NCBI RefSeq assembly: GCF_056712565.1
Contig: NZ_CM160072.1
Reading direction: 5' to 3' (one strand)
DNA: 64,000 nucleotides
Part shown: piece by piece, positions 8,192 to 42,099 of the stretch
How positions within the stretch are numbered: the first letter of the stretch is position 1
Layout of the letters: every line of letters starts with the position of its first letter
Notes under the pieces: model-generated
Database searches by the model: none
Seen by the model: only the letters and a program-made list of their open reading frames with translations
Told to the model about the DNA's origin: nothing
Made by a program: the position numbers and the translations under genes

Positions 8192-10888
8192 ATGTTTAAA
8201 GAAATTTTTACCCGGCTCATTCGCCATTTACCTTCCCGTCTGGTTCATCGTGATCCATTGCCTGGCGCGCAGCAGACAGTGAATGCGGCGGTCCCGCCTT
8301 CTTTAAGTGCGCATTGCCTGAAAATGGCGGTGATGCCCGAAGAAGAATTGTGGAAAACGTTCGACACCCATCCGGAAGGGTTAAATCTGGCGGAAGTGGA
8401 ATCTGCCCGCGAACAACATGGTGAAAATAAATTACCCGCACAACAACCGTCGCCGTGGTGGGTACATTTATGGGTCTGCTATCGCAACCCCTTTAATATT
8501 TTGCTCACCATTCTTGGTGCTATTTCTTACGCCACGGAAGATTTATTTGCCGCAGGTGTTATCGCGCTAATGGTCGCTATTTCTACGTTGCTGAACTTTA
8601 TTCAGGAAGCTCGTTCCACCAAAGCGGCAGATGCCCTGAAAGCGATGGTCAGTAATACCGCGACGGTACTGCGAGTAATTAACGACAAAGGCGAAAATGG
8701 CTGGCTGGAGATCCCGATCGACCAGCTGGTGCCCGGCGATATTATAAAACTGGCGGCAGGGGATATGATCCCGGCAGATTTACGTATCTTGCAGGCGCGG
8801 GATCTGTTCGTCGCTCAGGCGTCGTTAACCGGTGAGTCTCTGCCCGTGGAAAAAGCCGCTACTACTCGCCAGCCGGAGCACAGCAATCCGCTGGAGTGCG
8901 ACACCCTGTGTTTTATGGGCACCACCGTGGTGAGCGGCACGGCACAAGCAATGGTGATTGCTACAGGAGCCAACACCTGGTTTGGTCAACTGGCGGGGCG
9001 TGTTAGTGAGCAGGAAAGCGAGCCGAATGCCTTTCAGCAAGGGATCAGCCGCGTCAGTATGCTGCTGATTCGCTTTATGCTGGTGATGGCTCCGGTGGTG
9101 TTGCTTATCAACGGTTACACCAAAGGCGACTGGTGGGAAGCGGCACTGTTCGCACTTTCGGTCGCGGTAGGCTTAACGCCAGAAATGTTGCCGATGATTG
9201 TTACCTCGACGCTGGCGCGTGGCGCAGTCAAGTTGTCGAAACAGAAAGTGATCGTCAAACATCTGGATGCCATTCAGAACTTTGGCGCAATGGATATTCT
9301 GTGCACTGATAAAACCGGCACCCTGACACAGGATAAAATTGTGCTGGAGAATCATACCGATATCTCCGGTAAAACTAGCGAACGCGTGCTGCATAGCGCG
9401 TGGTTGAACAGCCATTACCAGACCGGGCTTAAAAACCTGCTTGATACAGCGGTGCTCGAAGGTACGGATGAAGAGTCAGCGCGCTCGCTGGCCAGCCGTT
9501 GGCAAAAAATTGATGAGATTCCATTTGATTTCGAGCGTCGTCGGATGTCGGTGGTTGTGGCAGAAAATACCGAACACCATCAGTTGGTTTGCAAAGGCGC
9601 ATTGCAGGAAATCCTCAATGTGTGTTCGCAAGTGCGTCACAATGGCGAGATTGTACCGCTCGATGACACCATGCTGCGTAAGATTAAGCGGGTTACTGAT
9701 ACGCTGAATCGTCAGGGGCTGCGCGTGGTTGCGGTGGCGACGAAATACCTGCCAGCGCGTGAAGGAGATTACCAGCGGGCGGATGAATCCGACCTGATCC
9801 TCGAAGGATATATTGCTTTCCTTGATCCGCCAAAAGAGACAACAGCTCCGGCACTGAAGGCATTAAAAGCGAGTGGAATTACCGTAAAAATCCTTACTGG
9901 CGACAGTGAGTTGGTTGCAGCGAAAGTGTGCCATGAAGTGGGGCTGGACGCGGGAGAGGTGGTCATTGGTAGTGATATTGAAACGCTATCTGACGACGAA
10001 CTGGCAAATCTCGCACAGCGCACCACGCTGTTTGCTCGTCTGACGCCGATGCATAAAGAACGCATCGTAACGTTGCTGAAGCGCGAAGGGCATGTGGTTG
10101 GCTTTATGGGCGATGGTATTAATGATGCGCCCGCCTTGCGCGCTGCGGATATCGGCATTTCTGTGGACGGCGCGGTAGATATTGCCCGTGAAGCGGCTGA
10201 TATCATCCTGCTGGAAAAAAGCCTGATGGTGCTGGAAGAGGGGGTTATTGAGGGACGTCGCACTTTCGCCAACATGCTGAAATACATCAAAATGACGGCG
10301 AGCTCTAACTTCGGTAATGTGTTCAGCGTGCTGGTGGCGAGTGCTTTCTTGCCCTTCCTGCCGATGTTGCCGCTACACTTGCTTATTCAAAATCTGCTGT
10401 ACGATGTGTCACAGGTGGCGATCCCATTTGATAACGTCGACGACGAGCAAATTCAAAAGCCGCAGCGTTGGAATCCGGCGGATCTGGGGCGCTTTATGGT
10501 CTTCTTCGGACCGATCAGCTCGATTTTCGATATTCTGACGTTTTGCCTGATGTGGTGGGTATTCCATGCCAACACGCCGGAAACGCAAACGCTGTTCCAG
10601 TCGGGCTGGTTTGTGGTGGGCTTACTGTCGCAAACGCTGATTGTGCATATGATCCGCACCCGTCGTGTACCGTTTATTCAGAGCTGTGCATCGTGGCCGT
10701 TAATGATTATGACCGTGATCGTGATGATTGTCGGGATCGCATTGCCGTTTTCACCGCTGGCCAGTTATCTGCAGCTGCAGGCGCTGCCGTTAAGCTATTT
10801 CCCGTGGCTGGTTGCGATTCTGGCAGGGTATATGACGTTAACCCAGTTGGTGAAAGGGTTCTATAGCCGTCGTTACGGTTGGCAGTAA
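8192..10888 (+). CDS. mgtA: Mg2+-importing P-type ATPase
   Basis: 898 aa; phosphorylation motif DKTGTLT and hinge motif GDGINDAPAL. Confidence 0.95.
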   Translation: MFKEIFTRLIRHLPSRLVHRDPLPGAQQTVNAAVPPSLSAHCLKMAVMPEEELWKTFDTHPEGLNLAEVESAREQHGENKLPAQQPSPWWVHLWVCYRNPFNILLTILGAISYATEDLFAAGVIALMVAISTLLNFIQEARSTKAADALKAMVSNTATVLRVINDKGENGWLEIPIDQLVPGDIIKLAAGDMIPADLRILQARDLFVAQASLTGESLPVEKAATTRQPEHSNPLECDTLCFMGTTVVSGTAQAMVIATGANTWFGQLAGRVSEQESEPNAFQQGISRVSMLLIRFMLVMAPVVLLINGYTKGDWWEAALFALSVAVGLTPEMLPMIVTSTLARGAVKLSKQKVIVKHLDAIQNFGAMDILCTDKTGTLTQDKIVLENHTDISGKTSERVLHSAWLNSHYQTGLKNLLDTAVLEGTDEESARSLASRWQKIDEIPFDFERRRMSVVVAENTEHHQLVCKGALQEILNVCSQVRHNGEIVPLDDTMLRKIKRVTDTLNRQGLRVVAVATKYLPAREGDYQRADESDLILEGYIAFLDPPKETTAPALKALKASGITVKILTGDSELVAAKVCHEVGLDAGEVVIGSDIETLSDDELANLAQRTTLFARLTPMHKERIVTLLKREGHVVGFMGDGINDAPALRAADIGISVDGAVDIAREAADIILLEKSLMVLEEGVIEGRRTFANMLKYIKMTASSNFGNVFSVLVASAFLPFLPMLPLHLLIQNLLYDVSQVAIPFDNVDDEQIQKPQRWNPADLGRFMVFFGPISSIFDILTFCLMWWVFHANTPETQTLFQSGWFVVGLLSQTLIVHMIRTRRVPFIQSCASWPLMIMTVIVMIVGIALPFSPLASYLQLQALPLSYFPWLVAILAGYMTLTQLVKGFYSRRYGWQ

Positions 10889-10899
10889 AGAATAAACTG

Positions 10900-11090
10900 G
10901 GCATGGTGGCCCGGAATCAGATTGCAGACAAAGTGAGCTTTGTTCATGCCGGATGCGGCGTAAATGCCTTATCAGGCCTACAAATTCAATAAATTGCAGG
11001 AATCACGTAGGCCTGATAAGCGTAGCGCATCAGGCAATTTTGCGTTTGTCATTAGACTTAATCCGGGCATGATAGCCCGGATTTCCATCA
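10900..11090. repeat. REP element cluster
   Basis: gccggatgcggcgtaaatgccttatcaggcctac and aggcctgataagcgtagcgcatcaggc palindromic units. Confidence 0.7.
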
Positions 11091-11093
11091 AGA

Positions 11094-11480
11094 TTAGCGA
11101 CGAACAGCGATCGCTTCGATCTCAATCTTCACGTCTTTCGGCAGACGAGCAACTTCAACGCAAGAACGTGCCGGGAAGGTGGCGTTGTGTTCGGTGAAAA
11201 AGGCTTCGTAGGTAGCATTAACGGTTGCGAAGTCGTTCAGATCTTTCACAAACACGGTGGTTTTAACGATATCGCCCACTTTCAGGCCAGCGGCTTCGAC
11301 GATCGCTTTTACGTTATCCAGCGACTGACGTGCCTGTGCAGCGACATCTGCCGGGACTTCGCCCGTTTTCGGGTTTACCGGGATCTGACCGGAAGTGATA
11401 ATCATATTGCCCAGATCAACGCCCTGCACGTAAGGACCGATAGCTGCCGGTGCATTTTCCGTCGCGATAGTTTTGCTCAT
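11094..11480 (-). CDS. ridA: enamine/imine deaminase (YjgF/RidA family)
   Basis: 128 aa from MSKTIATENAP; the six-frame ORF is extended upstream into the pyrI tail. Confidence 0.9.
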   Translation of the reverse strand: MSKTIATENAPAAIGPYVQGVDLGNMIITSGQIPVNPKTGEVPADVAAQARQSLDNVKAIVEAAGLKVGDIVKTTVFVKDLNDFATVNATYEAFFTEHNATFPARSCVEVARLPKDVKIEIEAIAVRR

Positions 11481-11552
11481 GATTTCTCCTTTATTACAGC
11501 GGTAAAAAGTCTGGCTCATTATAGGGAGCCAGACTTTTATTACCAACCGCAA

Positions 11553-12014
11553 TTAATTGGCCAGCACCACATTATGGGAAAACTCTTTTTCACAGTATTT
11601 GCATTTGAGCGCGATATCATTGGCGCGTTTTCGCACGGCAAAGCTGGATGAAACCGGTTCGGCATGGCTGATACAGTTGCTGTTCGGGCAGACCAGCACA
11701 TTGTCGATGCGCTCTGGCAGACTGGGGCGCGATTTGCCAACCACTTCATAGTTGTCGATACGGTTAACCGTGGCTTGCGGTGCATATAACGCCAGCTGAT
11801 CAACCTGATCCTCACTTAAAAAGGTATTTTCGATTTTGATCAGATCCTTGCGCCCCATCTCGCCAGAAGGCAGGTTCAGACCAATGGTGATGCGCTGATC
11901 TGTTTCGGTCAACTTGAACAGACTCAACAGTTTAAAACCGATCTGGGCGGGGATATGGTCAATTACCGTGCCGCGTTTAATAGCTTCAACCTGCAATTTA
12001 TTATCGTGTGTCAT
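11553..12014 (-). CDS. pyrI: aspartate carbamoyltransferase regulatory chain
   Basis: 153 aa; C-terminal zinc domain with CPNSNC and CKYC cysteines. Confidence 0.95.
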
Positions 12015-12026
12015 CTCTATTTCCCC

Positions 12027-12962
12027 TTACAGTACCAGATCGCGATTCAGAACCAGTGCCAGTAACGCCTGGCGAGCGAAAATCCCGTTGCCTGCTTGCT
12101 GGAAGTACCAGGCGTGAGGCGTTTTATCCACATCCGTCGCAATCTCATCAACACGCGGCAGCGGATGCAGCACTTTCATATTGGCTTTGGCGTTGTGGAG
12201 ATCGCTGGCGCGAAGAACAAACTGCGCTTTCACGTTGGCGTACTCGGACGGGTCCAGACGCTCTTTTTGCACGCGGGTCATGTACAGGATGTCTACTTCC
12301 GCCATCACTTCTTCAATAGAGCTGTGCAGACTCCAGGCGATCCCTTTTTCATCGAGCATATCCAGAATGTATTGCGGCATTGCCAGCGCATCCGGCGCGA
12401 TAAAGTAAAAACGGTTGCCGTCGAACTTCGCTAGCGCCTGGGTCAGGGAGTGAACGGTGCGGCCATATTTCAGGTCACCAACCATTGCGACGTGGAGATT
12501 GTCCAGACGCCCCTGGGTTTCCTGAATGGTGAATAAGTCCAGCAAGGTTTGCGTCGGATGTTGGTTGGAGCCATCACCGGCATTCAGTACCGGTACATTG
12601 CCGGAAAACTCGGTGGCCAGGCGCGCTGCACCTTCCTGCGGATGACGCATCACTATCGCATCGACGTAAGTGCTGATAACCGAAATGGTATCGGCCAGCG
12701 TTTCGCCCTTTTTACCCAGTGATGTATTGGCGCTGTCGGAGAAGCCCACCACGCTGGCACCCAGGCGGTGCATGGAAGTTTCGAAAGAGAGGCGGGTGCG
12801 GGTAGAGGCTTCGAAGAAACAGCTGGCAATAACTTTGTGCTTCAACAGCTCTGGTTGCGGGTTCGCTTTCAGTTTCGCCGCTGTCGCCAGCACCAGATTA
12901 AGGTCATCGCGACTAAGGTCGTTTATGGAAATGATATGTTTCTGATATAGCGGATTAGCCAT
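12027..12962 (-). CDS. pyrB: aspartate carbamoyltransferase catalytic chain
   Basis: 311 aa; STRTR carbamoyl-phosphate binding motif and HPLP motif. Confidence 0.95.
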
Positions 12963-12965
12963 CTT

Positions 12966-13100
12966 TTATCTCCTGACGCCTGGGCAAAAAAAAGCCCCTC
13001 GATTGAGGGGCTGGGAATGGGTGATCAACGGGAAGAAAAACGGCAGGCCAGCGTCTTTTTTCAGACGCGGTAAGACAAAATGTCGAACACACTGAACCAT
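12966..13100 (-). CDS. pyrL: pyrBI operon leader peptide (44 aa)
   Basis: reverse-strand translation gives MVQCVRHFVLPRLKKDAGLPFFFPLITHSQPLNRGAFFCPGVRR. Confidence 0.85.
   Translation of the reverse strand: MVQCVRHFVLPRLKKDAGLPFFFPLITHSQPLNRGAFFCPGVRR
12984..13011 (-). terminator. pyrBI attenuator hairpin (gcccctcaatcgaggggc followed by U-run)
   Basis: GC-rich hairpin plus T8 run on the coding strand inside the pyrL ORF. Confidence 0.8.
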
Positions 13101-13189
13101 ACATCCTCCCGGCAAATTGTCCGGCATTATACTCAGCTCTGAGAGAGGATCAAGAAGATGATGCAGTTATAAAGCAAGGCAAACGGTTA

Positions 13190-13678
13190 TCATGAATATA
13201 TATTCAATTTTAATAAGTAATTAATTTGCTTGTGCACCAGGGCTGTACGCTTTACCACACGTGGTGCGACCCAAACGATATTGCTGCCAGCAATCACGCC
13301 AAGAATTTCTGGCAAAGCATGGAAATCAAGGATTCGTGCTACTGCCCGACCATATCCGGCGACGGTATGGATAAGGATAAATTCACCATTATGCTCGACA
13401 CTCAGGACCATTTCAGCGACGGATCGACCTGCGTCAGGTGTGGGAAGTAATTGAGGATTCACCGAATAAATTTTTTGTCCTTTTGTATTTCTAATTTTTA
13501 TGACTCCCAGCAATTTCAGTAGTCGTGAAACGGTTGACTGACTGATACTGTCAAAGCCATGGTTTTGCAAATCGCGGCGGATTTCCTCCTGTGAAAGATA
13601 ACTTTTTTCGGTAATCAGGCGCTGACAGACCGCCAGTTGCTTCTTTTCTTTGGCGGAGTAATCATCGTATTCCTTCAT
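13190..13678 (-). CDS. ArgR-family transcriptional regulator, candidate ADI-cluster regulator
   Basis: 162 aa from MKEYDD (RBS aaaggtg upstream); winged-helix N-domain (SQSTVSRLLKLLG) and ArgR-like C-terminal oligomerisation domain. Confidence 0.75.
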   Translation of the reverse strand: MKEYDDYSAKEKKQLAVCQRLITEKSYLSQEEIRRDLQNHGFDSISQSTVSRLLKLLGVIKIRNTKGQKIYSVNPQLLPTPDAGRSVAEMVLSVEHNGEFILIHTVAGYGRAVARILDFHALPEILGVIAGSNIVWVAPRVVKRTALVHKQINYLLKLNIYS

Positions 13679-13793
13679 AATGCACCTTTTATTTATTATT
13701 ACCTGATGATATTTTTCACATTTTATAATGTGAGAGTGGTTCATTTATCACTACACCAGATTTGAAGGCCGCTTTGATAAGCGGCCTGTCGCG

Positions 13794-15197
13794 TTAAATC
13801 ATCGCGGCGATACTCAGCACAATCATATTCAACATCGTGAGAATCAGCAGTAGCGGTGCTACCCATCTCAGATAACGGACCCAGGGTACACGGGCAATCG
13901 CCAGACCGCCCATCACTACCGCAGAGGTTGGCGTAATCAAATTAACCACCCCGGAAGCAGACTGATAAGCGGTCACCACCAGATCGCGTTGTACATGAGC
14001 AAAATCAGCGAGTGGAGCCATTATTGGCATCGTTAACACTGCAAGGCCGGAAGATGAGGGAACCAGAAAAGAGAGCAATACTTCCAGCCAATAGGTCACG
14101 TTGATGAAAACAGTGGTGGAAAGCCCTGAAACCAGATTCTCAGCACTGTGCAGAATTGTGTGCGTAATCATGCCGTTATCCATCACGACCACAATACCGC
14201 GGGCGATGCCGATAATCAGTGCCACACCAAGGAGATCCCGCGCGCCGTCAATAAAGGTACTGGTGAAGGTTTCTTCGCCCATGCGGGCAATGACACCCAC
14301 GATGACCGCAGCTGCCAGAAAGACAGCAGAGATTTCCGCCATCCACCAACCCAGTACCGCTACGCCGTAAATCATAAAGGCAAAGGATGCAGCAAAAAGT
14401 ATCAGGATCGCTTTGCGCGTGGGGGTAAATTCCAGCATCGTTTCTGAACGATTTCCCAGAAAATGCGCCTGGTTTTCAGCCATCTTATCCGCCACGATAG
14501 AGCTTTCCGGACTGTTGCGAACTTTGCGGGCATAACGCATAACCCAGTAAACACAAATCACGTAGCCTACTAACAGCAAAATAACACGCAGCAAAATGCC
14601 CTGAGTAAAGGGGATCCCTGCGGCGTTGGCAGCAATGACGGTAGCAAATGGGTTAATGGTTGAGCCCAGCGTGCCAATGCCCGATCCCAATAACACTGTG
14701 GCGGCAGCGACCAGAGGATCAAAGCGGGCAGCCATCATGACGGGCACCAGCAACGTGTAGAAGGGGAGTGATTCTTCCGCCATCCCATAAATAGTACCGC
14801 CAGCAGCGAAGAGCGCCATCAGGATCGGAATCATCCACTCTTCCCGACCATTAAGGCGAGTTGTCACTCGTTCGATACCGGCATCTATTGCTCCGGTTTT
14901 ATTTACTACTCCCAAAAATCCACCGATGATCAGGACAAACAGCGCGACATCAATCGCTCCCGCAGTGTAGGTTTGATGGTTGTACAAGCCGTCGATGGGC
15001 GCTAACAGGACAGCCGTAATACCCTGTGGTTGCGCCTCAACAGGTGCGTAAGTGCCTGCAACAGGAACTTCCTTTCCCAGTGCGGCATTTGTCACCATCT
15101 GATATTTTCCCGCAGGTACAATCCAGGTCATTGCCGCAACTAACGCAATCAGCACGAACAAGATGGTATAAGCGGTGGGAAATTTGAATTTACCCAT
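13794..15197 (-). CDS. YfcC-family polytopic membrane transporter, candidate arginine/ornithine exchanger
   Basis: 467 aa from MGKFKF (RBS ggag); many hydrophobic helices; sits between arcB-like and argR-like genes. Confidence 0.7.
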   Translation of the reverse strand: MGKFKFPTAYTILFVLIALVAAMTWIVPAGKYQMVTNAALGKEVPVAGTYAPVEAQPQGITAVLLAPIDGLYNHQTYTAGAIDVALFVLIIGGFLGVVNKTGAIDAGIERVTTRLNGREEWMIPILMALFAAGGTIYGMAEESLPFYTLLVPVMMAARFDPLVAAATVLLGSGIGTLGSTINPFATVIAANAAGIPFTQGILLRVILLLVGYVICVYWVMRYARKVRNSPESSIVADKMAENQAHFLGNRSETMLEFTPTRKAILILFAASFAFMIYGVAVLGWWMAEISAVFLAAAVIVGVIARMGEETFTSTFIDGARDLLGVALIIGIARGIVVVMDNGMITHTILHSAENLVSGLSTTVFINVTYWLEVLLSFLVPSSSGLAVLTMPIMAPLADFAHVQRDLVVTAYQSASGVVNLITPTSAVVMGGLAIARVPWVRYLRWVAPLLLILTMLNMIVLSIAAMI

Positions 15198-15253
15198 AAT
15201 GTGATCTCCATAATCACGGGCATACGCCACTCGTCGACGCATGCCCGTCAGGG

Positions 15254-16258
15254 TTAGTCGCCGAGAGTTGCTACCATCACCGCTTTAATGGTGTGCATCC
15301 GGTTTTCTGCTTCATCGAAAACAATGGAGTGGGCAGATTCAAAAACCTCATCAGTTACTTCCAGTCCTTTGAGGCCGTAGGCCATCTCGATCTCGCGTCC
15401 TACTGTGGTGTGCTCATTATGGAAGGCGGGCAGGCAGTGCATAAATTTGACTTCAGGGTTACGCGTGGCAGTAATCACCTGTTGATTGATCTGATAAGGT
15501 GTCATAAGACTCACTCGTTCTGCCCAGGCTTCTTTTGGCTCTCCCATCGAAACCCAAACATCCGTATAGAGAAAATCAACGTCGTATACGCCTTCTTCCA
15601 CATCCTCTGTCAGGGTGATTCTCGCCCCAGTCACGCTGGCGATCTCACGGCATTGTGTTACCAGCGCTTCATCTGGCCAGAAAGATTTTGGTGCCACCAG
15701 ACGGATATCCATCCCCATTTTTGCAGCACCAACCATCAGCGAGTTCCCCATGTTATTTCGGGCATCACCAAGATACGCAAAGCTCAGCTCTGGCAGCGTT
15801 TTGCCTGGCGCATGTTCCAGCATGGTCATTAAATCCGCGAGGATCTGTGTCGGGTGAAATTCATTGGTCAGTCCGTTCCATACCGGAACACCAGCGAACT
15901 CACCTAATTCTTCAACGATATTCTGACCATAACCGCGATACTCAATACCGTCATACATGCGTCCGAGTACGCGAGCGGTATCTTTCATTGATTCTTTATG
16001 GCCGATTTGTGAGCCGCTGGGGCCGATGTAAGTCACCTGCGCACCTTGATCAAAGGCCGCGACTTCAAAGGCACAGCGGGTACGGGTAGAGGATTTTTCA
16101 AAAATCAACGCAATGTTTTTACCGACCAGCGTTTGTTTTTCGTTTCCAGATTTCTTGGCGGCTTTAAGATTGATAGCCAAATCAATCAGGTATTGAATCT
16201 CTGCTGGGGTGTAATCAAGCAGCTTAAGAAAATTACGGTTTTTCAGTGAAGTAGCCAT
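15254..16258 (-). CDS. arcB: ornithine carbamoyltransferase (catabolic, ADI pathway)
   Basis: 334 aa from MATSLK; STRTR and HCLPA motifs; paralog of argI five kb away. Confidence 0.85.
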
Positions 16259-16268
16259 GGGGATGTCC

Positions 16269-17213
16269 TTATAAAAATGGATCAAGCGTGGTTATGGGGG
16301 TATCAAGGCGAATAAGAGTGCCTTTGTCTCCGGCGAGAATTTCCGGACCATCTGCAAGAGAGCCGATCCCTGCAATGCCCCGGCACTGACTAACAAACTT
16401 TGCGCAGGCGGTGACTTTCGGCCCCATAGACCCGGCATCAAACTGCATTTCGTTGAGTAATTCCGGCGTGACCTGGGCCAGCGGGCGTTGGGTTGGCTTG
16501 CCCCAGTCGAGATATACTGCGTCCGCATCAGTGAGGATCAACAAGGCGTCAGCATGGATCTGACTTGCCAGTAGCGCGGCTGAAAGATCTTTGTCGATAA
16601 CCGCTTCAATCCCATGGTATCCATCGGCTTTTTCAACCACCGGAACACCACCGCCACCATTACAGATCACCAGATGATCGTGGGCGATCAGTGTCTGGAT
16701 GGCATCCCGCTCGACGATGCGTTTAGGTTGTGGAGAAGGTACGACCCGGCGGAAAGAGTGACCATCTGCTTTGAAAACCCAGCCTTTTTCTGCCTGTAGT
16801 ACCTGAGTCTGAGCGTGGTCATAAATTGGGCCGATGTACTTAGTTGGGTTACTGAAGGCGGGATCGTTGGCATCCACTTCAACCTGCGTCAGCAGAACGC
16901 TGATTTCACGTTGTGGTAGTTGATTTTTCAGCGCCTGTTGTAGCATGTAGCCGATCATCCCCTGGCTTTCGGCCCCCAGAATGTCGAGTGGATAGGGAGC
17001 GACATGGGCATAGGCGCTATTTTGAAGTGCCAGAAGTCCAACTTGTGGACCATTCCCGTGAACCAGTACAACCCGCCAGTGTTGAGTCAGTTGGGCGATA
17101 GTTTTAGCCGCAAGATCGATATTTTTACGTTGGATTTCTGCTTCGAGTGGTTCGCCTCGTTTAAGCAGGGCATTACCGCCGAGAGCGATAACCAGTGTTG
17201 GTTTGTTTTCCAT
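16269..17213 (-). CDS. arcC: carbamate kinase
   Basis: start placed at [17 protein letters not shown] (RBS aaggaag); amino-acid kinase fold. Confidence 0.85.
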
Positions 17214-17223
17214 GATCTCTTCC

Positions 17224-18447
17224 TTAGATACCGTCACGATGCAAAGGGCAACTCATGCAACGTGCGCCGCCACGTCCGCGGCCTAATTCATCACCGGGGA
17301 TGGGTAAAACGGTGATGCCTGCTTTGTCATATTTTTCGTTAGTCCAGATGTTGCGCTCGTAGCCCACTACCACTCCCGGCCGAAGCGTGAGCACATTGTT
17401 AGCGTCATTCCACTGTTCGCGTTCTGCCTCAAAGGCATCACCCCCCGTGGTGATTAAACGTACCTGGTCAATACCGAGGGCTTTTTCGATAGCATGGAGG
17501 AGTGTGCTTTCTTGAGTACGTTTCAGGCCGCCGTGACCGTCAGGTGTTAGCGTCCAGCAATTAACATCCGGGCGCACAACTTCGGGATAAACCGAGAAGG
17601 TGTCGATATCGATATGAGTCATAACGGTGTCAAGATGCATACAGGAGCGGTGTTTAGGCAGCTCAACAGCGATTACCCGTTCAGCCTGACGATGTTTAAA
17701 CAATGCCTGAGCAAGAAACTCGATTCCTTGTGGCGTGGTGCGTTCAGACATGCCGATCAACACGGCCCCCCGACCAATCACCAGCACATCACCACCTTCT
17801 AACGTGGCGTGGTCATAATTAATATTCTCGTCGCCGAAATATTTAATAAATTCGCCGCCAGCAAATTGTGGATGCCAGCGATAAATAGCGCGTAGATTAT
17901 TGGTTTCACGTTGGCGAGCAGGTTTTGCCATTGGATTAATCGATACACCGTTATAAATCCAGCATGAGGTATCACGCGTAAATAAATGATTCGGTAACGG
18001 CTTCATAATGAAATCATTAATATCGTGGGTATCAACCACCATATTTTTAATTGAGGCGGGAATTTCACTATAAGTCAGCCCACCACTTAAATGACGAGCA
18101 AGGTCCCGGTGTGACATCTCTGCAAGCCAGGTGCGAACGTCAGTAGCAAACGTAGGGCCGAGTCGGTAATCTGATATTTGTGTTTCCAGTAACCAGCTTT
18201 TGGCTTCCGGGATATCCAATGTTTGTGTTAGTAAATCAGTGAGTAACAGAACTTCTATCCCTTGCTGGCGCAGCGTATTGGCGAAAATATCATGCTCTTC
18301 ACCTGCCCGCTCAACGGACAATACATCGTCAAATAACAACTCCTGGCAATTGGATGGTGTTAGACGTTTCAGACTGAGATTTGGGCGATGCAACATAACG
18401 CTGCGTAGTTGTCCAATTTCAGAACCAACATAATGCTTTTCCATCAT
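17224..18447 (-). CDS. arcA: arginine deiminase
   Basis: 407 aa; ADI-family sequence with C-terminal catalytic cysteine region (ARCMSCPL). Confidence 0.88.
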
Positions 18448-18567
18448 TATTCCTTTAACACTTTTTCAAAAATAAAGAGGAGATGGCTGCAAACAAATTA
18501 AATGCTTGTAGTCAGGTCTGTTCAGTAATTTTCAGATGCAATGATTCAGTTTATTTCTTCCAGAAAA

Positions 18568-18583
18568 TGTGACGACTTTCACA
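18568..18583. promoter_or_regulatory. perfect CRP/FNR-family palindrome TGTGA-N6-TCACA upstream of arcA
   Basis: tgtgacgactttcaca read directly, about 125 bp upstream of the arcA start in a 674-bp AT-rich intergenic region. Confidence 0.5.
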
Positions 18584-19094
18584 CCAGTGATGATATTAAT
18601 AATCGCAGTTAATAATATTTGATGCGGTTCTGATAAATGATAAAGAAACAAAATACGATAATGCATTAATACGCAAATATACGCAGAGTTATTCTTCGTT
18701 GTTAATTGATTGTTTTATTTTTCAGGAAATGCCTTTAAGTATAAAGCATTGATATTTATGTATATTTTAATATTCATTGCATATCTATGCGAAAGAATAA
18801 GGTGATTATTTTTCACAGCACTATTTTCACGGGATAACTATGACAGCACGGGCATTAAAAGCTAAGAAAATGAACTGTGATCTGACTGAGAGTTTTCTTT
18901 TAACATATGCAATAACAAGATATTAGGACCAAAATACATAGCTAAGTTATAAGATTTATGCAGCAAAACTGCATACAAAATTACTCCTGCTTAACATCAG
19001 TACAACATCTCCAGCAATAAACATGCGCAAGGGCAAAACCTGATGATTTTTCTATGGTGAGAGGTGGCTTTTTTTCGTATAAGGAAAGAAGTGA

Positions 19095-19574
<480 letters not shown>

Positions 19575-19619
19575 GTGATCACTGCCGGGGGGCGACCTGT
19601 GCCGCCGCCCGGCAAAACG

Positions 19620-20624
19620 TTATTTTGCTAATGTAGCGACCATAACAGCTTTTATGGTGTGCATCCGGTTTTCTGCCTGGTCAAAGACAATACTTGCCGG
19701 AGATTCAAAGACTTCATCGGTGACTTCCATTCCACCATACAGACCGAATTCTGCGGCCATTTTTTTACCCAGCGTGGTTTGCTCATCATGAAATGCAGGC
19801 AGACAGTGGAGGAACTTAACCTGCGAATTACCGGTCAGGGCCATCATTTTGCTATTCACCTGATAGTCACGCAGCAGGGCAATACGCTCCGCCCATTTCT
19901 CTTTGGGCTCACCCATCGATACCCAGACATCGGTATAGATAAAGTCTGCACCTTTAACCCCAGAGGCGATATCTTCCGTCAAGGTGATTTTACCCCCGTG
20001 TTTTTGTGCCAGAGCACTGCATTCGGCGACCAGCGCAGCTTCCGGCCAGCATGCCTGTGGCGCGACCAGACGCAAATCCAGACCGGTAAGCGCCGCAGCT
20101 TCGAGCATCGAATTGCCCATGTTGTTACGCGCGTCACCTGCATAGACCAGCGTCATTTCGTTGAATGCTTTGCCGGGCAAATGCTCCTGCATGGTGAGGA
20201 GATCCGCCAGCAGCTGCGTGGGGTGGAACTCATTGGTCAGGCCGTTCCATACTGGCACGCCAGCGTATTCCGCCAGTGTTTCGACAATCTCCTGACCATA
20301 GCCGCGATACTGAATACCGTCATACATGCGACCAAGCACGCGGGCAGTGTCTTTAATCGACTCTTTGTGACCAATCTGGCTGCCGCTTGGGCCGAGATAA
20401 GTAACGCGAGCACCCTGGTCATATGCGGCAACTTCGAAAGAGCATCGGGTACGGGTCGAGTCTTTTTCGAAGATGAGCGCGATGTTTTTGCCAGTGAGTC
20501 TGGCTTCTTCTTTACCGCTTTTCTTATCGGCTTTCAGCTTCGCGGCTAACTGCAACAAGCTGTTGAGTTCAGCTGGCGTGAAATCGAGTAATTTCAGGAA
20601 ATGCTTATGATAAAACCCGGACAT
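19620..20624 (-). CDS. argI: ornithine carbamoyltransferase (anabolic)
   Basis: 334 aa from [20 protein letters not shown] and HCLPA motifs; ARG boxes upstream. Confidence 0.93.
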
Positions 20625-20649
20625 AGATCCCTCCTGTGGCCAACGCCTT

Positions 20650-20688
20650 AATGAATTAAAATTCAATCTATATGGATGATTATTCATT
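20650..20688 (-). promoter_or_regulatory. argI operator: two tandem ARG boxes 3 bp apart
   Basis: aatgaattaaaattcaat and tatggatgattattcatt match the TNTGAAT-N4-ATTCANW consensus. Confidence 0.8.
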
Positions 20689-20785
20689 TGCAAGTCTAAA
20701 GCATAAATCTTTGTCACAAAGGTGGAGGCAATGTCAGTGGTGTGTGACAATAAGAGTATCGGCAGGACATTAAGAGGAATGAGCC

Positions 20786-21202
20786 ATGGCAAACCCGGAA
20801 CAACTGGAAGAACAGCGTGAAGAAACACGTTTGATTATTGAAGAATTACTGGAAGATGGCAGCGATCCGGACGCGCTGTACACCATCGAACACCATCTTT
20901 CCGCAGACGATCTGGAAACCCTGGAAAAAGCAGCAGTTGAAGCGTTTAAACTCGGTTACGAAGTGACCGATCCAGAAGAGCTGGAAGTTGAAGATGGTGA
21001 CATCGTGATTTGCTGCGACATCCTCAGCGAGTGTGCGTTGAATGCCGACCTGATCGATGCCCAGGTTGAACAACTGATGACGCTGGCGGAGAAATTTGAC
21101 GTTGAGTACGATGGTTGGGGCACTTACTTTGAAGATCCTAACGGCGAAGACGGCGACGATGAAGATTTTGTCGATGAAGACGATGACGGTATTCGTCACT
21201 AA
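20786..21202 (+). CDS. rraB: RNase E inhibitor RraB (acidic protein)
   Basis: 138 aa, very acidic C-terminus ([17 protein letters not shown]). Confidence 0.9.
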
Positions 21203-21209
21203 TTAAGCG

Positions 21210-21320
21210 TTGACGACAAAGGCTGCGTTACCTGATGCGCTACGCATATCAGGCCCAGGTAGTTCCTGCAACCTGGTGAATTTGTAGCCCGGATAAGGCA
21301 TTTACGTCACATCCTGCATA
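21210..21320. repeat. REP element
   Basis: ctgatgcgctacgcatatcaggcc and gcccggataaggcatttacg palindromic units. Confidence 0.6.
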
Positions 21321-21349
21321 CTCAAAAAGCACGTGGTTAATGTTCGAAT

Positions 21350-21378
21350 GCCCGCGAGTCTAAGCTCGCGGGCATTTT
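21350..21378. terminator. bidirectional terminator between rraB and yjgM (gcccgcgag-tctaa-ctcgcgggc + T-run)
   Basis: perfect 9-bp stem followed by attttt. Confidence 0.75.
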
Positions 21379-21882
21379 TCAAAGTTTGCGTAGCATCCGT
21401 ACTTCACAATCGACATGACCCGTGCAGCCAAGCGCATAGTCGATATGCTCAAAGCCCAAATGCTCATAAAGCGCAATGGCTTCCTTTAAAAAAGCGGTCG
21501 TTTCCAGATAGCAGCGTTTGAAACCCATTTCTCGCGCCTGCTCCATTGCCATTAAGGCCAGTTTTTTTGCCAGCCCTTTGCCGCGGATAGCCGGAAGAAA
21601 ATACATCTTTTGCAGTTCGCAAATGTCTGACTCACTCCCGGTTAATGGCGCAATCCCACCGCCGCCGACCACTTCACCCTCGTACTCAACCACCCAATAT
21701 GCGTGGCCAGGCTGACTATATACTTGATACAGCTCGTCAAGGTTCGGATCGGCGACGGTGTAGCCTTTATCAGCGGTAAGACCGTATTCGGCGGATACCT
21801 GACGAATGACGTGGGCGATAGCAGGATTATCGGCGACGGTAAGTTTGCGCAAACGGAGTGCGGGAGAAGCGACAACATTCAT
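21379..21882 (-). CDS. yjgM: GNAT-family N-acetyltransferase
   Basis: 167 aa from ATG at MNVVAS (the track ORF begins at an upstream TTG); acetyl-CoA binding motif region (RGKGLAKKL). Confidence 0.85.
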
Positions 21883-22074
21883 AGCATAGCTCAATTTCAA
21901 ATGTATGATTTATAGCTCACTTTAATACCACCCTCGCTTAGGTGGTGCAAGAAGAAGATAAATCAGAAAATATTACGCATATCTCTCTGAGATAAAGCGT
22001 ATTCTAGGCGAACCAGTATCAATTGACTGGAATTATTATCGGTATGAATGGAATTTATTTTAGGGATATAGTTC

Positions 22075-40390: not shown

Positions 40391-40539
40391 ATTATTCTAG
40401 GATTATTTTCTTTGTTAAAAAAGACAAACGGTATTAACTGATGTATTTACTATTTACCGCTCCCTGCAGGGGGGATTATCAGAATCCGCGGTTATTCATT
40501 ATTTATATACATTCAATAAAAAAGTAACTGGATTTGCCC

Positions 40540-41445
40540 CTATATTTCCAGACACCTGTTATCACTTAACCCATTACTGGCTTGCTGCCGTAGATATTCC
40601 CGTGGCGAGCGATAACCCAGTGCACTATGCGGATGCCATTCGTTATAATGCTCGAACGCCTCTGCAAGGTTCTTTGCTGCCGTTAACCCGTCTGGTTTGG
40701 GCATGACACTGATGTAGTCACGCTTTATCGTTTTCACGAAGCTCTCTGCTATGCCGTTACTCTCCGGACTCCGCACCGCCGTGCTCTTCGGTTCAAGCCC
40801 CAACATCCGGGCAAACTGCCGTGTTTCATTAGCCCGGTAGCATGAACCATTATCCGTCAGCCACTCTACTGGAGACGCCGGAAGCTCGTTGCCGAAGCGG
40901 CGTTCCACCGCTCCCAGCATGACGTCCTGTACTGTTTCACTGTTGAAGCCGCCCGTAGTGACCGCCCAGTGCAGTGCCTCACGGTCACAGCAGTCCAGCG
41001 CGAACGTGACTCGCAGTTTTTCTCCGTTATCACAGCGGAACTCGAACCCGTCAGAGCACCATCGCTGATTACTTTCTTTCACAGCCACTCTGCCTGTATG
41101 TGCCCGTTTCGATGGCGGTACAGCAGGTTTTCGCTCAAGCAACAGCGCATTCTGGCGCATGATCCGGTAAACACGTTTGGCATTGATCGCAGGCATACCA
41201 TCAAGTTCTGCCTGTCTGCGAAGCAGCGCCCATACCCGACGATAACCATACGTGGGCAGCTCTCCGATAACATGGTGTATACGGAGAAGCACATCCGTAT
41301 CATCAGTGTGACGACTGCGGCGGCCATCCATCCAGTCATCGGTTCGTCTGAGAATGACGTGCAACTGCGCACGCGACACCCGGAGACAACGGCTGACTAA
41401 GCTTACTCCCCATCCCCGGGCAATAAGGGCGCGTGCGCTATCCAC
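40540..41445 (-). CDS. insD: IS2 transposase OrfB
   Basis: 301 aa DDE transposase within IS2. Confidence 0.9.
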
Positions 41446-41768
41446 TTTTTTGCCCGTCCATATTCAACGGCTTCTTTGAGGAGTTCATTTTCCATCGTTT
41501 TCTTGCCGAGCAGGCGCTGGAGTTCTTTAATCTGCTTCATGGCGGCAGCAAGTTCAGAGGCAGGAACAACCTGTTCTCCGGCGGCGACAGCAGTAAGACT
41601 TCCTTCCTGGTATTGCTTACGCCAGAGAAATAACTGGCTGGCTGCTACACCATGTTGCCGGGCAACGAGGGAGACCGTCATCCCTGGTTCAAAGCTCTGC
41701 TGAACAATTGCGATCTTTTCCTGTGTGGTACGCCGTCTGCGTTTCTCCGGTCCTAAGACATCAATCAT
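41403..41768 (-). CDS. insC: IS2 OrfA (HTH)
   Basis: starts [26 protein letters not shown]; overlaps insD in the -1 frame. Confidence 0.85.
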
Positions 41769-42099
41769 CTGCTCTCCAATGACTAGTCTAAAAACTAGTA
41801 TTAAGACTATCACTTAAATAAGTGATATTGGTTGTCTGGAGATTCAGGGGGCCAGTCTAGTAACCTCATAAAAAATCCTGTACTCACAGGGTGATGCGGG
41901 ATAACTGACGTAAGGAGTGCTGCAGGGATTTGATGGTCCCTTGTGCTGATATGAATACGGATATTTTATACAGAATACTTTTCAGTACAAGCGACTGTAT
42001 TACAGTCTGCCATATATGATTACCTGTGATCAGGAAGAATAAGTGGCTGAGGTTTCAAACTGTCTGCCGGTATATTCCTCTCTCCCTTAAAAACCATAA

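Follow-up and report, generated by a model that had tools for sequence, protein, structure and literature searches.

The current study deals with a 64-kb stretch of Escherichia coli DNA (the window, i.e., the whole sequence that was analyzed) and within it with the minus-strand interval 13190-18447, which represents, at a probability of about 0.93, the intact chromosomal arc operon of phylogroup B2 E. coli, i.e., the arginine deiminase (ADI) pathway genes arcA-arcC-arcB-arcE followed by the regulatory gene arcR (rosE). This reading is based on the family scores of the proteins, their tightly packed genes, a sequence identity of 100% to annotated genomes, the literature on strain Nissle 1917 and Salmonella, synteny, allele counts, and a conserved CRP-type site. 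As a finding it adds nothing new, as the operon has already been described and functionally tested and its five genes are annotated by the NCBI pipeline PGAP. The genes are as follows:

17224..18444, minus strand: arcA, arginine deiminase (EC 3.5.3.6), 406 amino acids (aa); NCBIfam TIGR01078 and NF002381; RefSeq WP_001346533.1 in strain HS13-1.
16269..17213, minus strand: arcC, carbamate kinase, 314 aa; NCBIfam; 10 nucleotides (nt) past arcA, with the Shine-Dalgarno sequence AAGGAAGAG.
15254..16258, minus strand: arcB, ornithine carbamoyltransferase (OTC), 334 aa, named "argF" by PGAP; NCBIfam.
13794..15197, minus strand: arcE-type gene of a putative arginine/ornithine exchanger, YfcC/DcuC family, TC 2.A.118, 467 aa; Pfam DcuC PF03606.
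13190..13678, minus strand: arcR/rosE, ArgR-family regulator, 162 aa; orthologue of Salmonella STM4463.

A scan for open reading frames (ORFs) returned five co-oriented minus-strand ORFs (13190-13744, 13794-15242, 15254-16285, 16269-17237, and 17224-18447), which reproduces exactly the gene limits of a preliminary description of this DNA. The starts listed above were adopted from the RefSeq/PGAP annotation of strain HS13-1, one of many RefSeq E. coli chromosomes that are 100% identical to window positions 13000-19100; there, PGAP gives the order pyrL, arginine repressor, YfcC family protein, argF, arcC, arcA, YhcH/YjgK family protein, and argF (argI). Every PGAP start of the five genes is preceded by a Shine-Dalgarno-like sequence, as the preliminary description had claimed. 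Its gap range of 10 to 55 bp stands with respect to the tight packing, but it presupposed a longer regulator ORF with a 49-nt gap; the PGAP starts give gaps of 10, 10, and 56 nt within arcA-arcC-arcB-arcE, a spacing that together with the common orientation would fit cotranscription, and 115 nt between arcE and arcR. No strong-stemmed terminator-like site was found by the terminator scan inside arcA-arcC-arcB-arcE.

All five ORFs match family models over their full length. ArcA reaches 531 bits with the equivalog model TIGR01078 (cut-off, 489) and 617 bits with NF002381 (cut-off, 414) and contains the C-terminal motif GGARCMSCP; ArcC scores 382 bits with TIGR00746 and 514 bits with NF009008 (cut-offs, 358 and 361), and ArcB 439 bits with TIGR00658 and 544 bits with NF003286 (cut-offs, 281 and 515). 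The comparison with the ADI, carbamate kinase, and OTC models had been set beforehand as the test on which the proposed ADI cluster could fail, and all three enzymes lie above the curated cut-offs. ArcB, which shares 69% identity with ArgI of the same window, is presumed to be the catabolic enzyme due to the position of its gene between arcC and the exchanger gene.

The transporter was correctly described as YfcC type rather than canonical ArcD: it matches Pfam DcuC PF03606 with an E value of 6e-115, and no canonical ArcD was found in the cluster. With 286 bits it stays below the cut-off of 500 of the YfcC equivalog model NF008611 and thus classifies by sequence as a YfcC-family paralogue, not as a YfcC orthologue. 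The earlier view that its substrate follows from context only no longer holds, since BLASTP with ArcE of Streptococcus pneumoniae D39 (A0A0H2ZNX2) provides a second basis (37% identity, 55% positives, E value of 1e-70, residues 4-342); the comparison sequence comprised the first 373 residues, derived by optical character recognition from an alignment in the supplement of PMC11106768, and lacked the C-terminal part. In 22 syntenic loci, a canonical APC-family ArcD (TIGR03810, 584 to 612 bits) takes this place between arcB and arcR. This swap looks like a non-orthologous displacement, and the identical slot argues for the same exchanger role. On the basis of the homology to ArcE and the slot shared with ArcD, the protein is regarded as a putative ArcE-type arginine/ornithine exchanger. 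A solved structure related to it could not be detected by sequence, even at E values of ≤1. According to Noens and Lolkema (2017; PMC5300872), arcE instead of arcD is present in about half of the bacterial arc clusters, including 22 of the gamma-proteobacterial ones; the ArcE family (TC 2.A.118) belongs to the IT superfamily, and the pneumococcal protein catalyzes a high-affinity, electroneutral arginine/ornithine exchange and also carries citrulline. The pneumococcal arcABC-arcE system has in common with the window the exchanger family, superfamily, and Pfam domain, but it differs in host phylum, gene order, and regulator, and transport by ArcE was measured for the pneumococcal protein only. 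As a side observation, the slot of Citrobacter amalonaticus (L003:12362-14950, and likewise L018) harbors an ornithine-racemase-like gene (NF040742, 404 bits, below the cut-off of 480) plus ArcD (TIGR03810, 605 bits) and no ArcE-type gene.

ArcR is by sequence an ArgR-family paralogue and not ArgR itself, because both ArgR domains are present while the scores remain under the equivalog cut-offs (NF003457, 110 versus 194 bits; TIGR01529, 101 versus 130 bits); its best solved relative is the arginine repressor 3v4g (E value of 5e-22, residues 11-152, both domains). The identity of 86 to 87% (aa) to the product of the syntenic gene in Salmonella enterica subsp. arizonae and diarizonae, and an N terminus, MKEYDDY, equal to the one encoded by the rosE cloning primer in PMC2328253, identify ArcR at the sequence level as the positional orthologue of Salmonella RosE/STM4463. 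The 115-nt spacer in front of arcR contains a promoter-like site and the following hairpin, an arrangement that fits the rosE transposon insertion at -40 (PMC2328253):

13767..13786, minus strand: GC-rich hairpin GGCCGCTT-ATCA-AAGCGGCC directly past the arcE stop, read from the sequence.

The hairpin is a possible end of the arcACBE transcript; its T tail is weak, and it was not called by the terminator scan. There is no known RNA element inside the cluster: an Rfam scan of positions 12800-19800 at E values of ≤1 yielded two sub-threshold matches only, both located on the pyrL attenuator hairpin and on the wrong strand.

The gene content corresponds to the established four-step scheme of the ADI pathway. 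The ArcE-type exchanger would import L-arginine against L-ornithine, ArcA would hydrolyze arginine to citrulline and NH3, ArcB would phosphorolyze citrulline to ornithine and carbamoyl phosphate, and ArcC would transfer the phosphate to ADP, thereby releasing ATP, NH3, and CO2. From each arginine, a net yield of one ATP and two NH3 is predicted, i.e., energy without respiration and an alkalinized cell and medium. ArcR/RosE, with a promoter of its own, would probably modulate arc expression.

The control region of arcA lies in the 677-nt spacer between arcA and tabA, which has a GC content of 31%. Conserved blocks were taken from an alignment of 47 arcA upstream regions and comprise the following elements:

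18568..18583, minus strand: perfect CRP-type site TGTGAAAGTCGTCACA upstream of arcA (motif match in a conserved block).
18662..18676, minus strand: ARG-box-like palindrome TGCGTATTAATGCA (TGCGTAGTAATTCA in relatives), candidate ArcR/ArgR operator (conserved alignment block).
18487..18511, minus strand: inverted repeat in the 5' leader of arcA with the consensus CTGCAAA...TTTGCAG (conserved alignment block).

TGTGAAAGTCGTCACA is the sole perfect TGTGA-N6-TCACA in the window (0.08 expected), and nearly all related loci, including those of Serratia and Erwinia and the IncF plasmid copy, possess a GTGA-N6-TCAC 120 to 140 nt upstream of arcA. The center of the site is located about 29.5 nt upstream of the -10-like hexamer AATCAT (18546-18541; AATGAT or AAATAT elsewhere), a spacing that matches the geometry of class II CRP promoters and suggests CRP dependence. 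Judged by this motif, a class II promoter that depends on CRP and lies upstream of arcA probably drives expression; among the papers searched, none dealt with CRP control of the arc operon. The palindrome has two to three mismatches to TGAAT-N4-ATTCA and is the only such element upstream of arcA, where a strict ARG box was absent at up to two mismatches. As an FNR site, the sole match upstream of arcA was a two-mismatch palindrome (18749-18762), which was rejected as it lies outside the conserved blocks. The arcDABC operon of Pseudomonas aeruginosa resembles that of the window in its three enzymes, pathway logic, operon-encoded exchanger, and a CRP/FNR-family site at class II distance, but its gene order is different, its exchanger is an APC-family ArcD unrelated to the ArcE/YfcC type, and there is no dedicated ArgR-family regulator gene attached. 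The P. aeruginosa ANR box is centered at -41.5 and represents the type with the FNR/ANR signature TTGA/TCAA, whereas GTGA/TCAC in the window is the CRP signature.

Closely related arc operons have been investigated experimentally. The chromosomal arc genes of Nissle 1917, CFT073, 536, and ABU 83972 share locus, allele, and gene order with the window, and nothing of substance differs. Phylogroup B2 strains with ADI (c5350 in CFT073) have been distinguished from MG1655, which lacks it (PMC6390828). Liu et al. (2024; PMC10659395) deleted the native operon of Nissle 1917 (arcA, arcC, and arcB plus arcD and arcR) and expressed it from pTet; in vitro, it conferred an arginine-dependent stabilization of the pH and a growth benefit across initial pH values, and in the mouse gut it was a disadvantage. 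For this 99.8% identical Nissle operon, the same paper is also the source for an arginine-dependent formation of ammonia, ornithine, and ATP. The STM4463-STM4467 islet of Salmonella agrees with the window in its five genes, their order, and their position between pyrLBI and tabA/argI. Its regulator RosE (STM4463), which represses std fimbriae, is encoded on an islet of about 5 kb that was reported from all sequenced Salmonella genomes and uropathogenic, but not other, E. coli (Chessa et al. 2008; PMC2328253). In the summary of Choi et al. (2012) given in PMC4813224, STM4463 controls STM4467, and ADI aids replication in macrophages and virulence in mice. The window proteins are 95% (ArcA), 90% (ArcC), 90% (ArcB), 90 to 91% (ArcE), and 86 to 87% (ArcR) identical to those of S. 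arizonae/diarizonae, corresponding to 77 to 82% at the nt level.

Of the 5426 complete E. coli genomes, 596 contain the entire cluster, in every case on the chromosome and with an identity of at least 99.6% over arcE-arcR; three records fall into the band of 95 to 99% over the full cluster. Carriers include Nissle 1917 (99.8% to the window over arcE-arcR), ABU 83972 (99.7% over the whole cluster), 536, ATCC 25922, NRG 857C, O18 strains, and many avian pathogenic strains of serotypes O1/O2:K1, all of which we take to be phylogroup B2 lineages. The operon is carried by a subset of B2, e.g., Nissle 1917, 536, and strains of sequence types ST95 and ST73. The K-12 segment yjgH-bdcA-bdcR was found in 4824 genomes with 95 to 100% identity, and since both counts add up to 5420 of 5426, the arc and K-12 states are mutually exclusive alleles of one locus. 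The strain-variable nature of the locus had been anticipated, as had the gene content of K-12: MG1655 has the order pyrL-yjgH-bdcA-bdcR-tabA-yjgL-argI without the arc cluster.

A second arc operon, identical in the set and order of its five genes, exists in about 297 places on IncF-type plasmids and about 65 chromosomal places of the complete genomes. It is a distinct lineage, with an identity to the window of about 77% (nt) over arcA-arcC, 72 to 79% (nt) per gene, and 77 to 91% (aa); it likewise has a CRP-type site upstream of arcA, but instead of the pyrBI-argI locus it occupies a position between insertion sequence (IS) elements on conjugative plasmids, e.g., between IS66/IS1 elements and the replication region of pJIE186-2 of ST131. 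The operon in the study of Billard-Pomares et al. (2019) is presumably of this IncF-plasmid type. As summarized in PMC7671891, that study reports that arc became more prevalent among CTX-M producers, that it was beneficial in a urinary tract infection model, and that it carried a cost in gut colonization.

The locus was placed in a wider context by scanning one genome per species with ArcA (100,044 species, 446 relatives) and examining the best 80 loci. About 70 of these best 80 loci show the order ridA-pyrI-pyrB-arcR-transporter-arcB-arcC-arcA-(tabA)-argI-rraB-yjgM, among them loci from Citrobacter, Salmonella arizonae/diarizonae, Enterobacter, Kosakonia, Lelliottia, Trabulsiella, Buttiauxella, Cedecea, Serratia, Rahnella, Erwinia, and Tatumella; in Aeromonas, arc adjoins pyrBI, and in most syntenic loci tabA and argI are adjacent without yjgL. 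The synteny comparison proposed in the preliminary description thus places the Salmonella arizonae/diarizonae genes in the same order and position, with K-12 devoid of arc. Because this order is kept in about 70 species, arc between pyrBI and argI is, on comparative grounds, the ancestral arrangement of the Enterobacterales and that of K-12 is derived. K-12 still contains, with a single mismatch, the ARG box which in the window overlaps the arcR stop codon, and also the adjoining GCAAACGGTT motif, both of which support its derived state. The earlier wording "insertion/replacement" is therefore appropriate with respect to a strain-variable replacement, but not to an insertion, the arc-bearing order being the ancestral one.

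The exchanged segment extends beyond the five genes, from about 13136/13207 to about 20030, and ends inside argI. On the left, near-identity to K-12 stops just upstream of the pyrLBI -10 hexamer (window position of about 13135); from there to the arcR stop codon, the sequence is homologous but divergent (79.5%). On the right, the haplotype includes two further parts:

19122..19574, plus strand: tabA (yjgK), a divergent allele travelling with the arc haplotype; TIGR00022, 192 bits.
19620..20030, minus strand: 3' part of argI, delimited by the drop of identity to K-12.

The tabA allele is 75% (nt) and 83% (aa) identical to that of K-12, compared with 96 to 98% (nt) for the flanking core genes; yjgL is missing between tabA and argI, which lie 45 nt apart. 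Within argI, nt 1-600 are 97 to 99% (97.6%) and the last 410 nt or so (nt 601-1005) 76 to 83% identical to K-12, which places the right-hand recombination junction near position 20030. Gene conversion from arcB was considered as the source of the divergent argI 3' end and rejected, as its identity to arcB (58 to 75%) is no higher than that of K-12 argI; no sign of conversion between the two genes was seen. Separately, the 3' ends of arcB and argI (15267-15325 and 19633-19691) form direct repeats with 83% identity over 59 nt at a distance of 4.4 kb and are a possible substrate for a deletion of arcC-arcA-tabA.

Several points weigh against the interpretation as an intact arc operon of the proposed function and ancestry. 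CRP dependence and ArcR operators are motif inferences only, and because no FNR-type site was found upstream of arcA, the anaerobic induction that is typical of other arc operons is unexplained. Expression and enzyme activity in the window strain are deduced from sequence and from relatives. The similarity of ArcB to the anabolic ArgI and its PGAP label "argF" leave a catabolic action unprovable by sequence alone, and the assignment of the exchanger depends on the 37% identity to a partial ArcE sequence and on genomic context. Finally, the ancestral position does not settle whether the B2 strains retained or re-acquired the operon, and between the window arc genes and those of any other genus, or of Escherichia sp. 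strain MOD1-EC7003, the identity is only 77 to 83% (nt).

The main alternative is that the cluster was not retained from the E. coli ancestor but came by horizontal transfer, as a "pathogenicity islet," from another enterobacterium into a B2 sub-lineage, either by insertion or by homologous recombination at pyrLBI and argI. Its restriction to B2 with almost no diversity, next to a K-12-type allele that exhibits the species-wide diversity expected of a gene set in the E. coli ancestor, speaks for such an event, as do the sharp junctions on both sides and the divergence of tabA and the argI 3' end from K-12 (about 75 to 80% identity), which corresponds to that between genera. A precedent is provided by MOD1-EC7003 (L006), whose arc genes and tabA are 88 to 91% (nt) identical to C. 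amalonaticus and 75 to 82% to the window, although its flanks (ridA, pyrI, pyrB, rraB, and yjgM) are 93 to 96% identical to the window. These values indicate that the complete arc-tabA allele was imported independently, so that whole-allele import by homologous recombination does occur at this locus. The interval itself, however, does not qualify as a mobile genomic island: the ORF scan revealed no integrase, transposase, or IS gene in it, no tRNA gene was found in 10000-24000, and the junctions lack flanking direct or inverted repeats beyond chance and the arcB/argI paralogy, while its GC content is 49.2% versus 50.6% for the window. No donor is known, since the closest copy among the 100,044 species representatives has 96% identity at the aa level (at most 83% nt in those compared). 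Moreover, the divergence from Citrobacter and Salmonella (77 to 83%, nt) is near that of the core neighbors pyrB and rraB between genera (83 to 87%), as predicted by vertical descent, and the ARG-box relic of K-12 at the position of the arcR 3' end implies that an arc-bearing allele gave rise to the arc-less one. Altogether, we consider acquisition a tentative explanation that deserves attention without being the favored one.

A more far-reaching interpretation concerns the junction between arcR and pyrLBI, where the following elements were located:

13193..13206, no strand assigned: perfect ARG-box core TGAATATATATTCA overlapping the arcR stop codon (motif scan).
13188-13179: PurR-like AACCGTTTGC next to the ARG box (from the sequence).
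13153-13126: pyrLBI promoter TTGATC-16-TATAAT (from the sequence).

The window contains two perfect ARG-box cores (0.06 expected), the second one being the argI operator (20652-20665), and the box at the arcR stop is kept in Citrobacter, Salmonella, and Escherichia sp. though the final arcR codons differ. ArgR and PurR ChIP sites were reported at the K-12 pyrL promoter (PMC4299497). Because arc is situated across the Enterobacterales between pyrLBI (aspartate transcarbamoylase) and argI (anabolic OTC), the ARG box at the arcR stop and the PurR box form part of the pyrLBI control region, arcR and pyrL (13126-13206) are not separated by a terminator, and arcA has a deeply conserved site of class II CRP type, the locus might represent a conserved "carbamoyl-phosphate neighborhood" in which transcription couples the catabolism of arginine to the synthesis of pyrimidines and of arginine. 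Coupling could be accomplished by read-through from arcR into pyrL or by competition of ArgR and ArcR for the shared box, and CRP rather than FNR could be the master switch. We regard this as speculative and on the whole unlikely.

With respect to physiology, the operon would be differently used if its main substrate were citrulline, or citrulline plus arginine, with citrulline/ornithine exchange followed by ArcB and ArcC for ATP synthesis and a dispensable ArcA. The window transporter is a homologue of pneumococcal ArcE, which, unlike ArcD, moves L-citrulline efficiently, a shortened ADI pathway for citrulline has been proposed (PMC5300872), and a strain-specific release of ornithine and citrulline was observed for Nissle (PMC6390828). 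However, arcA is intact, the first gene, and conserved in all loci, the affinity of ArcE for arginine is about 100-fold above that for citrulline (PMC5300872), and the Nissle phenotypes were obtained with arginine (PMC10659395), all of which makes citrulline improbable as the main substrate. A silent or decaying remnant without current function, as might be suspected from the loss of the operon in most E. coli and the colonization burden in mice (PMC10659395; for the plasmid-type operon, Billard-Pomares as summarized in PMC7671891), is already largely refuted and can hardly be upheld in the face of five full-length ORFs, 596 of 596 carriers that keep the whole interval, conserved promoter motifs, and the altered pH and growth phenotypes upon deletion and induction in Nissle (PMC10659395).

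Apart from the arc locus, the window differs from K-12 in several other places. A second non-K-12 segment (21832-23264) comprises the 5' end of yjgM together with the complete yjgN, the product of which is 42% identical to K-12 YjgN, 87% identical to that of MOD1-EC7003, and without NCBIfam match; an insertion of about 32 nt directly past rraB (21211-21247), possibly REP-like, is also absent from K-12. An IS2 beside the intB pseudogene (40529-41859) is inverted relative to IS2K of K-12. The part of the leuX island at 41939-64000 (yjgX, nanX/nanY, IS911, and the fec operon) is 99.8 to 99.9% identical to K-12, compared with 96.7 to 98.2% for the core genes to its left, which suggests a recent sharing of a KpLE2-like element between distant E. 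coli lineages. Within this part, positions 50794-54236 between IS3-family transposase genes are absent from K-12, which has IS30D/IS600 there, and 51200-53203 encode a BetT-like BCCT choline/betaine transporter (NF007399, 751 bits versus a cut-off of 695).

The added value of the present analysis of the arc operon lies in the polarity of the two alleles, with arc as the ancestral order and K-12 as the derived one, in the naming of the transporter, and in the regulatory motifs found to be conserved, among them the ARG box in common with pyrLBI. The transporter should be designated ArcE type and not ArcD, although the published work on Nissle uses "arcD." The conserved CRP and ARG-box motifs furnish testable regulatory hypotheses, and if the coupling of arginine and pyrimidine metabolism were true, the presence of yjgH-bdcA-bdcR in place of arc would have rewired it in most E. 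coli. As the chromosomal B2 operon and the IncF operon are distinct, surveys based on PCR or BLAST may confuse the two or miss one of them. The operon matters, as published, for the generation of ATP from arginine and the accompanying rise in pH, for the pH of the gut community in the case of Nissle 1917, and for the virulence of Salmonella, and the plasmid-borne form has been connected with a trade-off that sets urinary tract infection against gut fitness in E. coli producing extended-spectrum beta-lactamases.

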